From a virus, in the UHGV virus genome UHGV-1377764: a DNA stretch of 43,062 nt; one strand, given 5' to 3'. Numbering within the stretch: the stretch's first letter is position 1; each line of letters opens with the position of its first letter. Under the pieces are notes generated by a model. The model worked only from the letters and a program-made list of their open reading frames with translations, did no database searches and was not told the origin of the DNA. The translations under genes were made by a program, and so were the position numbers. Shown piece by piece: positions 1-36,773 of the stretch.

Positions 1-13
1 GTTTTTTTTTTTT

Positions 14-199
14 TTACTCATAGTAAAAACTCACATACCTGTGCGCTTTCAGGTAATCTTCTTTTGAAATAATATTAAAACTATCTAACGCTTTTAAGTA
101 TCCATAACAATAATAAAAATATTTATCAGACACCTTCTGTGTTTGATTTTTTGGTGGTAATAGTTGGTCTAGTTTAGTTAGTAATTCATCGTAATTCAT
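14..199 (-). CDS. hypothetical protein (last gene of leftward replication operon in window)
   Basis: ORF 61 aa, ATGA overlap with upstream prim-pol gene; followed by A15 tract at window edge. Confidence 0.45.
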   Translation of the reverse strand: MNYDELLTKLDQLLPPKNQTQKVSDKYFYYCYGYLKALDSFNIISKEDYLKAHRYVSFYYE

Positions 200-2929: not shown

Positions 2930-3127
2930 TCATACTTCAAAAACCTCCTTGATATCTTGACAAGGTACTTTTAAGTTATTAATGGCATAGTTGATAGCTT
3001 CTACAATGTTCATTGCTGGTATATTTAGTTCGTGAATTGTTGTATCAATATATTGAAAGCTTGGGTTACTAGCATATACTTTTTCTCGTTTTTCTTCTTC
3101 ATAAATAATGCAATACTCTTTAATCAT
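2930..3127 (-). CDS. hypothetical protein
   Basis: ORF 2930..3196 trimmed to internal ATG (MIKEYCII) preceded by GGAGAAATTGAGT; avoids 77-nt overlap with VRR-NUC gene. Confidence 0.4.
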   Translation of the reverse strand: MIKEYCIIYEEEKREKVYASNPSFQYIDTTIHELNIPAMNIVEAINYAINNLKVPCQDIKEVFEV

Positions 3128-3470
3128 ACTCAATTTCTCCAATCTTAATTTCTGGCAACTCTGGTTGTTTGTATTGTCGTTCAATTCCATTGTCAATGCA
3201 AGATAATAAAACCATGAGTTCTTGAAGCGTGTCTCGTAGAATCAGCCCAAACCCTCCAGCGTCACGTACTTTTTGTAAGTAACTGATTTGTAAAGGATCT
3301 GGCTGATACTTACCTACCTTCAATTCTAAACTAATCCAATAACCTTTATAGCAGCACTCTACATCAGAACGCCCAACTTTGTCAAACATGTTGGCTGTGT
3401 TGACGTTAACTAGCGCACCTTTTTCTTTCAAATATTTAACTACTTGTTTACTGAACTGACTTTCTTTCAT
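3120..3470 (-). CDS. VRR-NUC domain nuclease
   Basis: 116 aa; PD-(D/E)xK-like core GRSDVECCYKGYWISLELK typical of VRR-NUC; sits downstream of SNF2 helicase as in many Gram-positive phages. Confidence 0.65.
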   Translation of the reverse strand: MKESQFSKQVVKYLKEKGALVNVNTANMFDKVGRSDVECCYKGYWISLELKVGKYQPDPLQISYLQKVRDAGGFGLILRDTLQELMVLLSCIDNGIERQYKQPELPEIKIGEIEYD

Positions 3471-3678
3471 GAATTTTACTCAATCCCTTCTTTTTACCTA
3501 AAACCTGATCTTCACAAGTTACTAATACATCATCAATTGTCAAATTGTTTTCTTTCATTAGTTGCAACAATCCACCATATGCAGCCCACAAGAATTTCTC
3601 TTCTTTTTCTCCAGTATTTGGCATTACTTCTGGTGCTAGTTCATCGCAGATTTCATCCCATTCTTTAAGTGTTAACAT
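3448..3678 (-). CDS. hypothetical protein
   Basis: ORF trimmed to MLTLKEWDE start after GGGAGG RBS. Confidence 0.4.
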   Translation of the reverse strand: MLTLKEWDEICDELAPEVMPNTGEKEEKFLWAAYGGLLQLMKENNLTIDDVLVTCEDQVLGKKKGLSKIHERKSVQ

Positions 3679-3893
3679 TATTCTTCCTCCCAATTCATAA
3701 TATGAGTTGTAATAGCGTCTTCTAAATAGCGCTTCACACGTTGTGCCTCTTTACGTGTTAGTGTTACAATGGCACAATCTTCTTCATCATCTGTTAATGT
3801 AATAAAAATACTATTATAATTATCATATGTTGCAACTCGTACTCGCTCATTAGTTTCTGTAGATAAATATTTTTCATAATTCAATTTTTCCAT
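3678..3893 (-). CDS. hypothetical protein
   Basis: ORF 3678..3965 trimmed to ATG (MEKLNYEKY) 5 nt after stop of upstream gene. Confidence 0.4.
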   Translation of the reverse strand: MEKLNYEKYLSTETNERVRVATYDNYNSIFITLTDDEEDCAIVTLTRKEAQRVKRYLEDAITTHIMNWEEE

Positions 3894-3898
3894 TTTGT

Positions 3899-4186
3899 TT
3901 AACCCCCAGTTATCATAAATACTAGAAAAGATATCACAATAAGAGAAAAAGAAATTACTATCCAATTTAAATATCTTGCTAGTGTTAACTCACGTTCTAA
4001 TTCGGTTATTCTGCTAGAAACTGGTGTAGCTTTAATTTCCGTAAAATGATAATAAATACTATCTATTTCGTGTGACCAGTCTTCCATTGCTTTCTCAATG
4101 GCATCCTGTTTGGTAGTTGCTATTACAGTATGACGATATTTGTTTTCATCTGACATTATGCCAGTTACTATATATTGTTGTTTCAT
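3899..4186 (-). CDS. hypothetical membrane-anchored protein
   Basis: 95 aa; C-terminal hydrophobic helix WIVISFSLIVISFLVFMI. Confidence 0.45.
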   Translation of the reverse strand: MKQQYIVTGIMSDENKYRHTVIATTKQDAIEKAMEDWSHEIDSIYYHFTEIKATPVSSRITELERELTLARYLNWIVISFSLIVISFLVFMITGG

Positions 4187-16839: not shown

Positions 16840-18078
16840 TTGAATCGTGAAGAGCAAATCAAAAAGGCACATGATTTATTATCAGAAGGCAAATTCGAAG
16901 AAGCACGTAGTTTAGTTGAAGCAATTAAAAAACAAGATGCAGAAGAGTTAGAAAAAAAAGCTTCTGACAAAAAGCCTGACGAAGATAAAACCGTTGAAGA
17001 AACAAAAGATGAAGAAAAAGAAGAACCAAAAGAGCAAGAACAAGAAAAAAAAGAAGAAAAAGAACCAGAGAAAAAACAAAAAGATGAAGAAAAACGCTCA
17101 TTAGAGCAAAAAGGAGAAGAAAAAAATATGGAAAAAGTAGTGTTAGATGGAAAAGAAATCTCTCAACCAGAAACAGAAGTTCGTGGATTTTTAAATTATG
17201 TACGTTCTCATAACCCTAAAATGGACTTGCGAGCGCTTCCAGAAGGTGTAAAATCAACTGATGTTGGTGCTATTATCCCTCAAGATATTGTTACAAAAAC
17301 AAAAATGTTACCTGAAACAGTTGTGGATTTACGAAATCTAGTTCAAACAGTGAAAGTAAGCACACCTACAGGTAAATACCCAATTTTGAAGTCAACAGAG
17401 GCTGTAATGCACACAGTAGAAGAATTGGAAGCAAATCCAGATTTGGATAAACCACAATTTGAAAATGTATTGTATGATGTTGATACTTATCGTGGACAAA
17501 TTCCAGTTTCTCGTGAATCTTTAGATGATTCAGATGAGGACTTAGGAGCATTGATTGGACGTCATGTTCAACGCATTGCATTAAACACAGCAAATTCTAA
17601 AATTGTTGAAAACTTGAAAACAGCAACACCTAAAACAGTTAAGAATTTGGATGAAATCAAAACAATCATCAATACTGAATTTGACCCAGCATACAACTTG
17701 CAATTTGTAGTTTCTCAATCATTCTATAATGAAGTAGACTTAATGAAAGATAATGAAGGACGTTACCTATTACAACCTTCAATTACAGCTCAATCTGGTA
17801 AATCTTTACTTGGTTTGAATGTAACTGTACTTTCTGATAAATTGTTAGCTGGATCAGAAGCTCCTAATAAAAAAGTAGCATTCTTAGGTGATCCTGCTGG
17901 ATTTACATCATTCTTTGACCGTAATGAAATGGCAGTTCGTTGGCAAGAACATCAACACTATGGAGAAATTCTAGCCGCAGCTATGCGTTTTGACGTTAAA
18001 AAAGTAGACGCAGCAGCTGGTAAATTCTTAACTCTTGATACAGCGGCTGCAGCAGCTTCAGAAGGTCTAGGAGCATAA
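16840..18078 (+). CDS. major capsid protein (HK97 fold) with ~100-aa Glu/Lys-rich N-terminal scaffold-like (delta) domain
   Basis: 412 aa; TTG start 6 nt after GAAGGAGTG; N-terminal KEEK low-complexity followed by Phage_capsid-like region; no separate scaffold gene. Confidence 0.8.
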   Translation: MNREEQIKKAHDLLSEGKFEEARSLVEAIKKQDAEELEKKASDKKPDEDKTVEETKDEEKEEPKEQEQEKKEEKEPEKKQKDEEKRSLEQKGEEKNMEKVVLDGKEISQPETEVRGFLNYVRSHNPKMDLRALPEGVKSTDVGAIIPQDIVTKTKMLPETVVDLRNLVQTVKVSTPTGKYPILKSTEAVMHTVEELEANPDLDKPQFENVLYDVDTYRGQIPVSRESLDDSDEDLGALIGRHVQRIALNTANSKIVENLKTATPKTVKNLDEIKTIINTEFDPAYNLQFVVSQSFYNEVDLMKDNEGRYLLQPSITAQSGKSLLGLNVTVLSDKLLAGSEAPNKKVAFLGDPAGFTSFFDRNEMAVRWQEHQHYGEILAAAMRFDVKKVDAAAGKFLTLDTAAAAASEGLGA

Positions 18079-32705: not shown

Positions 32706-32927
32706 CTATTTAAATTCTTCCCATTTGTTTGGTGCAAATCCCATACTTACAAGCTCACCATCTTTAAACACTACAGGTAGTGTTCTTAGGTTCATAGTAA
32801 GTAATTCATTTAAACCTTCTAGATTATCATCCACATTAACCTCAGTAAAGGTGTGTCCTTTTCCTTTAAACCAGTTCTTTGTCATTTTACAAGGCATGCA
32901 ATTATTTTTAGTATAAATTTTAATCAT
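32706..32927 (-). CDS. nrdH: NrdH-like glutaredoxin
   Basis: ORF trimmed to MIKIYTKNNCMPCK (CxxC) with RBS AAAGGAGGAAATTAAA; start overlaps stop of upstream MTase C-terminal frame. Confidence 0.65.
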   Translation of the reverse strand: MIKIYTKNNCMPCKMTKNWFKGKGHTFTEVNVDDNLEGLNELLTMNLRTLPVVFKDGELVSMGFAPNKWEEFK

Positions 32928-32928
32928 T

Positions 32929-33661
32929 TTAATTTCCTCCTTTAACTTTAAATAATTTTTCAACTCGTTGTTTATTTTTTATATCTCCTTGATTTGTAAT
33001 AGATACCTTTGTGTCTTTACTCCATATACATTCAAATTTATCTTCTGGCATTTGGTATTCACTAATTAATACTGTATTGTTTTTAGCTAATTCAATAGCC
33101 CACTTATCAAAGTCCGCATATGGAAAGTTTCCAGTTGAATAAGATAATGTTTTTCTATATGGTGGGTCTAGATAAAAGACACAGTTTTTATAATCAGTTG
33201 GGTTATAATCAGTAAATGATTTACATTCAAATGTAACATCTTTAAACAGTGTTGATTGTTTTTTTTAAATTTTTGATAGCACCAGCTGACCACTCACCGC
33301 TATCGTCTCCTTTTTTGTTTCTAGCGTATCCACCAAAATACTTAGCTCCAAACGAACCACAAAATCCCACTAAACCAACATACCAGGGTTCGTAGCTATC
33401 TCTATTTGCTTTTACACGATTGTATTCTTCTTCTGAAATTCTTGAAGGTATTAAAGATGAATCATCTCTAGTATAGTTTAATAATGCAATTAATTCTTTG
33501 TGTACATCACTACCTATTTTATTATGATGGTTTATTTTATCAATCATATTAGCTCCACCTACAAATGGTTCAATATATGCTACTGTCTCATCTGTAATGT
33601 AACTTTGAATGATTGGTGCTAATTCTTTACTAAGTCTGTTTTTACTTCCTACGTATCTCAT
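32929..33661 (-). pseudogene. Dam-like N6-adenine DNA methyltransferase, copy 2, split by +1 frameshift at A8 tract
   Basis: N-terminal ORF 33242..33661 (MRYVGSKNRL..EPFVGGANM motif I) stops just after A8 (plus T8 33259-33266); C-terminal 93 codons incl. FYLDPPY motif IV intact in +1 frame to 32929; ~90-95% nt identity to 36045..36773 at both ends. Confidence 0.7.
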
Positions 33662-33694
33662 GTTCTTTACTTCCTCCTCTTAACTTATGAATTA

Positions 33695-33723
33695 AGTATA
33701 ACACCTCAGTTAAGAGGTGTCAA
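33695..33723 (-). promoter_or_regulatory. early promoter TTGACA-N17-TATACT with spacer palindrome ACACCTC-TTAAC-TGAGGTGT, conserved leader
   Basis: Read directly. Confidence 0.55.
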
Positions 33724-36044: not shown

Positions 36045-36773
36045 TTATCTTACTTTGAATAGTTTTTCAACTCTTTTTTTATTTTTTATATCTCCTTGAC
36101 TGCTAATTCCAACCTTAACCTCTTTGCTCCAGATACATTTAAATTTATCTTCTGGCATTGCATATTCACTAATTAGTACAGTATTGTTTTTAGCTAACTC
36201 TATAGCCCATTTATCAAACTCTTTGTATGGAAAGTTTCCAGTTGAATAAGATAATGTTTTTCTATATGGTGGGTCTAGATAAAAGACACAGTTTTTATAA
36301 TCAGTTGGGTTATAATCTAAAAATGACTTACATTCAAAAGTAACACCTTGTAAGTTTGGTGCTTGCTGTTGTAAGTTTAGTATTGCTTCATTTGGATAGT
36401 CACGTGGTGTGATACCATCAGCTTTATAACCTCTAGCATATCCACCAAAGTATTTGGCACTAAATGACGCACAAAACCAAACTAAACCAATATACCAATC
36501 TTCGTAATAATCCTTGTTGTTTTTTACATGAGTGTACTCATCTTCAGATATTGTTTTTGGCAAAAAGTTAGAATTATTTTTATTATAGTTGTGTAATGCG
36601 ATTAATTCTTTGTGTAAATCACTACCAATTTTATTATCATGTTTAATTTTATCAATCATATTAGCCCCACCTACAAATGGTTCTATATATGCTACTGTGT
36701 CATCTGTAATATAACTTTGAATGATTGGTGCTAATTCTTTACTAAGTCTGTTTTTACTTCCTACGTATTGCAT
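36045..36773 (-). CDS. Dam-like N6-adenine DNA methyltransferase, copy 1 (intact)
   Basis: 242 aa; motif I EPFVGGANM, motif IV DPPY; 5' UTR (tattcaaacgagagaggaagtaa) duplicated in front of the polymerase gene. Confidence 0.7.
   Translation of the reverse strand: MQYVGSKNRLSKELAPIIQSYITDDTVAYIEPFVGGANMIDKIKHDNKIGSDLHKELIALHNYNKNNSNFLPKTISEDEYTHVKNNKDYYEDWYIGLVWFCASFSAKYFGGYARGYKADGITPRDYPNEAILNLQQQAPNLQGVTFECKSFLDYNPTDYKNCVFYLDPPYRKTLSYSTGNFPYKEFDKWAIELAKNNTVLISEYAMPEDKFKCIWSKEVKVGISSQGDIKNKKRVEKLFKVR

Follow-up and report, generated by a model that had tools for sequence, protein, structure and literature searches.

Does a gene that is cut in two at a run of adenines reflect an error of sequencing, a gene in decay, a gene that is recoded during expression, or a gene that can be switched on and off? 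This question is raised by a DNA methyltransferase gene of the virus genome UHGV-1377764, of which we analyzed a stretch of 43,062 nucleotides (nt; hereafter, the window). The window corresponds to a ~43 kb siphophage of Enterococcus (faecium-type), which is 84-90% identical to phages Aramis, IME-EFm1, IME-EFm5 and RG1. It contains two methyltransferase genes, copy 1 and copy 2, which flank the DNA polymerase gene (pol). Copy 2 is interrupted at eight consecutive As on its coding strand (A8), and a preliminary description of the locus considered this to be the layout of a methyltransferase that is either phase-variable by slipped-strand mispairing or controlled by transcriptional slippage. Below we present evidence that A8 is a genuine length variant of a tract of seven As (A7), that similar changes have occurred repeatedly in related phages, and that the tract probably behaves as a contingency locus.

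Copy 2 Is Interrupted at an A8 Tract and Restored by Removal of One A

The features of the region are listed in Table 1. Copy 2 starts with an ATG codon at position 33661 of the minus strand. In the 0 frame it ends with ...AIKNLKKTINTV, followed by a TAA stop codon at 33244-33242 that is located directly past the A8 tract. The stub encoded by this open reading frame (ORF) contains the S-adenosylmethionine (AdoMet)-binding motif I and lacks the catalytic motif. From position 33258 onwards, the +1 frame reads QSTLFKDVTFECKSF...FECKSF...FYLDPPY...KVKGGN and terminates at a TAA at 32931-32929; this frame is stop-free through DPPY, as compared to about 20 stops in the remaining two frames of the stretch 32929-33258. 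The A8 tract is a +1 length variant of the A7 tract TTA AAA AAA CAA, which encodes L K K Q, and the removal of one A from copy 2 results in a 243-aa (amino acid) product that is colinear with copy 1. Hence, the preliminary description was right in placing the stop after A8, in regarding the +1 frame as open to 32929, and in predicting that A7 would restore a full-length enzyme. It had also asked whether the downstream frame carries further disruptions, and no second lesion was found in copy 2 after resetting the tract to A7. The possibility of a split enzyme, in which the C-terminal half would be translated separately, was rejected, because the first ATG, GTG or TTG codon in that frame is the Met codon at 33051, which is located past DPPY.

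Table 1. Positions in the window of the features of the two methyltransferase genes and of the sequences next to copy 2.
Feature	Position	Strand	Remarks
Promoter-like site TTGACA-17-TATACT with TG extension	33695..33723	minus	11/12 matches, best of the region; just upstream of copy 2
Shine-Dalgarno sequence GAGGAGG of copy 2	33673..33679	minus	strong
Truncated N-terminal ORF, methyltransferase copy 2	33242..33661	minus	139 aa, C-terminus TINTV followed by stop
Motif I FVGGAN (FxGxG-type AdoMet-binding loop), residues 33-38	33548..33565	minus	read from translation; PF02086 N-terminal match
A8 homopolymer	33259..33266	minus (coding strand; T8 on plus strand)	the proposed switch itself
C-terminal methyltransferase half, +1 frame	32929..33258	minus	109 sense codons plus TAA, no internal stops
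Catalytic motif IV DPPY, residues 165-168	33157..33168	minus	in the out-of-frame downstream part
nrdH/glutaredoxin-like gene	32706..32927	minus	73 aa, PF00462
Methyltransferase copy 1, intact paralogue	36045..36773	minus	242 aa, 75% identical to repaired copy 2, colinear

The Eighth A Is Genuine

The window is a metagenome-derived contig and homopolymers are classic sites of error. A sequencing or assembly error in a genome that truly contains A7, which had been named as the trivial alternative in the preliminary description, was therefore considered. Three metagenome contigs from ENA encode the exact 139-aa product, and their sequence here matches the window at 100% identity. The IMG/VR uncultivated viral genome (UViG) UViG_3300029254_000011 also has A8 and an unchanged arrangement of frames, although its gene shows 19 nt differences (identity of 96.5% over a region of 1,061 nt). 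This second A8 haplotype was found on 13 contigs, originating from several PRJEB6997 samples, IMG 3300029254 and an NCBI third-party annotation (TPA) record, and the gene is identical throughout these 13 contigs. The contig names (k119_, k141_ and NODE_..cov) suggest that short-read assemblers of the MEGAHIT/SPAdes style were used; a coverage of ~500x (cov_503) can be read from one name and a multiplicity of ~330 from another. A8 is common to assemblies from different projects and assemblers, and in other haplotypes A6 or A8 recurs from run to run.

The remainder of the window was also analyzed. No frameshift was detected elsewhere in it when stop-to-stop ORFs of Aramis of at least 70 aa were compared by tblastn, and two other A8 runs, in the major capsid gene, are in frame. 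Runs of at least seven As are under-represented in the window (22 matches versus 46 +/- 10 in shuffled sequences), and among these runs only the copy 2 tract breaks a gene. Because independent assemblies carry the same A8, a second haplotype has it as well and the rest of the window is clean, an error is highly improbable and was rejected. Thus, A8 is a genuine, heritable +1 variant.

Working A7 Alleles Exist alongside the Interrupted Ones

To find homologues, the repaired copy 2 sequence was compared to 5.8 billion proteins, and the matches were handled as clusters at 90% identity. The full-length protein P0001 is 98% identical to repaired copy 2 and reads ...AIKNLKKQSTLFKDVTFECKSF..., just as had been predicted for the A7 state; the corresponding DNA has A7 on three contigs. 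Another full-length protein, P0127, is the working version of the second A8 haplotype and belongs to the same cluster as P0001. Searches of the JGI metagenome contigs (two DNA patterns) and of the GTDB genome contigs gave no matches.

The closest pairs of working (ON) and interrupted (OFF) alleles are of special interest. The genes on contigs L031 and L032 (A7) and on contig L022 (A8) differ, besides the tract, at 1 nt in 720. The L022 phage and the L031/L032 phages share ~91% identity over 7.5 kb and their flanking genes are 8-15% divergent, and the near-identical block of ~1.3 kb consists of the 3' end of pol and the methyltransferase gene. The presence of such a block in divergent genomes indicates that the gene module was swapped recently and that the tract changed afterwards. 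Similarly, repair of the A8 allele of contig L045 gives a protein with 100% identity to P0135, an ON protein encoded on six contigs. An intact A7 tract is also present in a cultured phage of E. faecium, vB_Efm8_KEN21 (L055, PP582175.1), of which the 87%-identical methyltransferase gene is located at 3001-3723, upstream of the polymerase gene.

The Tract Has Changed Repeatedly in Different Phages

Besides copy 2, several other homologues are truncated at the tract. Three proteins correspond to a +1 change (A8), namely P0137 (139 aa, C-terminus ...NLKKTIRAV), P0145 (139 aa, ...NLKKTIRVV) and P0168 (144 aa, ...NLKKTITIAARHNL). Two others, P0136 and P0139, correspond to a -1 change (A6); both are 163 aa long and read ...NLKNNQSFLK.... 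Inspection of the DNA confirmed A8 in the contig pairs L045/46, L047/48 and L049/50, and A6 in L051/52 and L053/54. Altogether, seven alleles of altered length, five A8 and two A6, were confirmed by DNA across the 90%-identity clusters. When reset to A7, 7/7 encode an uninterrupted enzyme of 240-243 aa containing FVGGAN and DPPY, and no second lesion was found in any of these seven OFF alleles.

Between OFF alleles, as many as 184 of the 720 nt of the gene differ (up to 25% divergence of the haplotypes), and the alleles also vary in sequence within 15 nt of the tract. This gene divergence and the varied flanking bases imply at least five independent events, which is a conservative count. A single A8 origin that was spread by gene conversion is ruled out for most alleles, since the bases flanking the tract differ. 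The window and L022 are identical over ~170 nt around the tract, and this pair may share one A8 origin. Downstream of the tract, the two closest A8 haplotypes differ by only three substitutions, two of which are synonymous and one not.

The OFF alleles were found in several contexts: downstream of pol, upstream of pol, in a two-copy phage and on a podovirus-like contig. The two-copy phage (L047, positions 1-155; SRR25571571) is unrelated to that of the window and its downstream copy is likewise OFF at the tract. Contigs L053/L054 (SRR25571658, SRR25571653) and L051/L052 (SRR8731942, SRR8731938) share the same methyltransferase module and tract in quite different backbones; the podovirus-like contig L053 encodes a Podovirus_Gp16 packaging ATPase and has a different lysis cassette. 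These genomic contexts suggest that the methyltransferase gene is transferred among different types of Enterococcus phage.

In the sequences surveyed, a single further allele with loss of function was confirmed. This is the P0158 allele, in which codon 183 is a TAG nonsense codon. Its A7 tract and the rest of the gene are intact, and 10 contigs originating from several runs carry the allele (182 aa, L056-L059). The occurrence of seven tract alleles versus one nonsense allele indicates that the 7-bp tract is far more mutable than the remainder of the gene, which measures ~730 bp in total.

Copy 2 Encodes a Predicted D12-Class Methyltransferase with a Paralogue

Repaired copy 2 matches the Pfam family PF02086 with 56.1 bits (cut-off 22; copy 1 scores 53.9 bits) and PHROG 56, DNA methyltransferase, with E = 2e-38. 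Motif I (FxGxG) precedes motif IV (DPPY), which is the order of the alpha group. From these sequence matches, copy 2 is predicted to be a D12-class (Dam-like) N6-adenine DNA methyltransferase. The score for the Dam subfamily proper, TIGR00571, is 57.4 bits and falls below the NCBIfam cut-off of 114.85, and a sequence search with the copy 2 protein found no relative in the PDB.

The paralogue, copy 1, reads ACAACAG at the position equivalent to the tract and hence has no homopolymer there. The divergence between the two copies peaks at residues 110-143, around the tract. The location of this peak suggests that these residues form the target-recognition part, in which case the two copies need not be redundant. 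Copy 1 forms an insertion of ~0.7 kb, which is missing from the L022-type phage and from Aramis. Redundancy with copy 1 was also rejected as a general cause of the OFF state, because the L022-type phage does not have copy 1 next to pol. An exact peptide-word scan, which a divergent enzyme could escape, gave no match to another methyltransferase on the 42-kb contig L022.

Sequences Flanking Copy 2 and Other Features of the Window

In the intergenic region between pol and copy 2, a 7-bp hairpin (ACACCTC...GAGGTGT) is situated between the -35 and -10 hexamers of the promoter-like site. A related UViG (L005) has kept the stem and has a different loop (TTAAC versus AATTA), which hints at a conserved structure or an operator.

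Downstream of copy 2, the stop codon of the methyltransferase frame (32931-32929) and the ATG of nrdH (32927-32925) form a TAA-A-ATG junction. The two codons had been described as overlapping; they are actually one base apart, and a separate GGAGG for nrdH is located at 32940-32936. The argument that coupling to nrdH speaks against a pseudogene is weakened accordingly, because the overlap is absent and nrdH has its own ribosome-binding site. In IME-EFm5 (L001, KT588072.1), the methyltransferase and an nrdH/thioredoxin gene form a single ORF of 314 aa at 3100-4044, the junction being one base shorter (GGAGGAAA-TGAAATG versus GGAGGAAATTAAAATG). This fused ORF may be genuine or may result from a homopolymer error in the genome sequence of the isolate; the metagenomic protein P0152 (318 aa) is an independent instance of a methyltransferase-NrdH fusion. 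In Aramis, IME-EFm1 and others, the methyltransferase gene between pol and nrdH is missing. Since close relatives have an empty site, the gene is accessory and the OFF state is viable. Phages in the OFF state were also sufficiently abundant for assembly from many samples.

Some other features of the window are worth mentioning. The two in-frame A8 runs of the major capsid ORF (16840-18078) are located at 16952-16959 and 17045-17052 of the plus strand, in its Lys/Glu-rich N-terminal region, and could be sites prone to slippage within an essential gene; the equivalent runs of Aramis are interrupted (GAAAACAAAG and GAAAAAGAAC). A T14 run at positions 2-15 (plus strand), at the start of the contig and next to an assembly break, may be a genome end or an effect of the assembly edge. 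GATC occurs 54 times in the window versus 116 +/- 11 times in dinucleotide-preserving shuffles. This ~2-fold avoidance is as expected under pressure of a GATC-cutting restriction enzyme and has no bearing on the specificity of copy 2.

Discussion

The results presented here make it probable that a hypermutable poly-A tract toggles an accessory orphan phage methyltransferase in the manner of a contingency locus, and that copy 2 is OFF in the window. The tract is a repeat within an ORF that shifts the frame, it is polymorphic in length between near-identical alleles, and it has undergone recurrent, independent changes. The lack of secondary decay and the intact expression signals are likewise as predicted for a contingency locus, and the frameshift of copy 2 is recent. 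As to the two mechanisms offered in the preliminary description, slipped-strand mispairing is supported by the natural A6, A7 and A8 alleles, the ON/OFF pairs and the at least five events, whereas transcriptional slippage is not, as the shifted state is not conserved.

We infer that the tract changes arise by replication slippage, by which one A would be gained or lost, and that they are reversible. A tract of A7 would then give the full enzyme of 240-243 aa (ON), and tracts of A8 and A6 would give stubs of 139 and 163 aa, respectively, both without the DPPY half (OFF). In the window, this would correspond to a phage in which copy 2 is OFF and its paralogue copy 1 is intact. Since the OFF alleles differ from a working gene by tract length alone, one further slip could switch them back on. 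At the level of the population, the tract would act as a phase-variable switch of phage DNA methylation. RNA polymerase or ribosome slips on A8 might possibly generate a small output of full-length enzyme as well, although not as the main mechanism. By analogy with T2 agt, a benefit of switching could be hedging between hosts that restrict unmethylated DNA and hosts that attack methylated DNA; alternatively, dropping a redundant enzyme could save costs when copy 1 is present.

Several observations weigh against a contingency locus. A tract of A7 is short compared to classical contingency tracts. The wider family does not have a conserved run, as homologues read AAAGAAA, ACAAAAA, AGTTAAA, AAAACGC or AAAAAAG at this position, and TTA-AAA-AAA is plausibly the default codon choice of an AT-rich phage, which would be no sign that mutability has been selected. 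In addition, an irreversible nonsense allele has spread to 10 contigs, showing that plain loss of a dispensable gene can reach high frequency and that a switch is not needed for this. Finally, all comparisons are between consensus assemblies, and contig pairs may include re-assemblies of the same sample, so that there are fewer independent samples than contigs.

We put forward only tentatively the possibility that the tract is a selected contingency locus, a phage 'phasevarion', with which Enterococcus phages toggle their own N6-adenine (m6A) methylation by +/-1 slippage. Every burst would then hold methylated and unmethylated progeny, hedging across host defences, and recombination would pass the switchable module between siphovirus and podovirus-like backbones. 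Recurrent loss of a non-adaptive nature, which we regard as rather unlikely, is an alternative: the gene would be dispensable and A7 its most mutable site, the A8 and A6 alleles would be young polymorphic pseudogenes without selected switching, and these OFF alleles would drift or hitch-hike to high frequency and later be deleted or lost. Such loss fits with the absence of the gene from close relatives, with the intact tract of the widespread nonsense allele, with the lineage-specific nature of a tract that plausibly reflects codon choice, and with the finding that the downstream copy is broken in both two-copy phages (the window and L047). However, if OFF lineages persisted, older and decaying copies would be expected, and 0/7 tract alleles have a second lesion. 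Moreover, redundancy cannot explain the OFF state of the L022-type phage, which has no second copy at the locus; identical or near-identical ON versions coexist in nature with OFF alleles; and the promoter, the Shine-Dalgarno sequence and the catalytic motifs are all intact. An old decaying pseudogene, which had already been doubted in the preliminary description, was rejected on the grounds that the OFF alleles have no second lesion and that the expression signals and the catalytic half of copy 2 are intact.

Another explanation is that the A8 gene still yields useful full-length enzyme by programmed or leaky recoding, so that the frameshift would tune its dose. Either RNA polymerase would slip from A8 to A7 or A10, or tRNA-Lys would slip by +1 or -2 on the ribosome at A-AAA-AAA-A. 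It is precisely inside the run that the target frame opens, the downstream frame is intact, and productive slippage on A8 is known from elsewhere, for instance human apoB (~10%) and some insertion sequence (IS) elements with 8A (PMC1088944). Nevertheless, we consider recoding improbable. The gene forms one in-frame ORF in most homologues, those outside the sub-lineage have an interrupted tract, and ON/OFF pairs exist. A run of 8 is below the usual bacterial threshold of 9 A/T (PMC1088944), and rescue requires the deletion of 1 nt from the RNA or the insertion of 2 nt. At A/T runs of E. coli and Buchnera, most errors of transcription add one base, deletions being rare (PMC5574713), and the commonest slip would therefore generate A9, which does not rescue the frame. 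The A6 alleles would need the opposite correction. A ribosomal slip would also be restricted, because with A8 the T that directly precedes the run and the first two As of the run form a TAA in the +1 frame (33267-33265), which confines the shift to the run or the five codons that follow it. The predicted fold is not significantly stable (z = -1.1) and hence does not point to a stimulatory structure, a rare codon was not found, there is no Shine-Dalgarno-like stimulator upstream of the run, and the tract region has no Rfam match at E <= 1. In one study, non-programmed suppression of frameshifts amounted to ~1% in E. coli and was barely detectable in B. subtilis (PMC10861913).

The experimental demonstration of contingency loci in phages is recent and comes from coliphages and vibriophages kept as laboratory stocks. 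What would be new here is an ON/OFF switch based on a homopolymer in a phage-borne, orphan, Dam-like methyltransferase gene, with evidence that comes from natural gut-phage populations instead of laboratory stocks. In Enterococcus phages of the human gut, a single 7-bp tract occurs in three length states in the consensus of many metagenome assemblies, and the ON and OFF states of the methyltransferase plausibly meet opposite restriction pressures. If the tract is indeed a selected locus, it would be the first example from natural populations of phage bet-hedging of the T2/T4 type. The locus is directly testable, as the cultured relative vB_Efm8_KEN21 has the tract in the ON state. There are also practical consequences: annotation pipelines will label such alleles as 'hypothetical protein' or as split genes, and stocks of therapeutic Enterococcus phages may vary in methylation and hence in host range.

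How does the copy 2 tract compare to known systems? An A/T homopolymer at a junction of overlapping frames, where a full-length product is made only if the run length changes, is also found in Thermus dnaX (A9), Shigella mxiE (T9) and IS elements (A8/A9) (PMC1088944). In those genes, however, both the shifted layout and the run are conserved, the latter usually with a length of at least nine, whereas here the in-frame A7 is common and A8 and A6 are variants. There is a closer likeness to bacterial phasevarions, in which a simple sequence repeat in a methyltransferase ORF is switched ON and OFF by slipped-strand mispairing (PMC12707154). Phasevarions involve chromosomal Type III Mod or Type I systems of host-adapted bacteria, usually have longer repeats, and regulate sets of host genes (PMC12707154). 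Copy 2, by contrast, is predicted to be an orphan, Type II-like enzyme of the Dam family in a phage of the virulent type, where it presumably protects phage DNA. As an orphan phage enzyme that is neither Type I nor Type III, it is outside the strict phasevarion class.

Orphan methyltransferases of the T4 Dam and P1 Dmt type have, to our knowledge, not been reported to be homopolymer-switched. Like these enzymes, as far as they are covered by the citation of Murphy et al. 2013 in PMC12707154, copy 2 has D12-class motifs, has no cognate nuclease and is accessory. In T2 agt and T4 rIIA, poly-A runs serve as contingency loci, with reversion ~1,000 to 10,000 times that of point mutants, and the ON and OFF states of T2 agt involve a trade-off with respect to two restriction systems (bioRxiv 10.1101/2025.10.21.683753). 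As in these genes (Gomez, Barrick & Waters 2025), copy 2 has a short poly-A run within the ORF that would give rise to reversible null alleles by +/-1 slippage, and, as in the case of T2 agt, the target is a DNA-modification enzyme, although agt encodes a glucosyltransferase and copy 2 a predicted m6A methyltransferase. The T2 and T4 loci were established in the laboratory, in myoviruses of E. coli with measured reversion, whereas the evidence presented here is comparative and comes from A6, A7 and A8 alleles that occur naturally in the gut.

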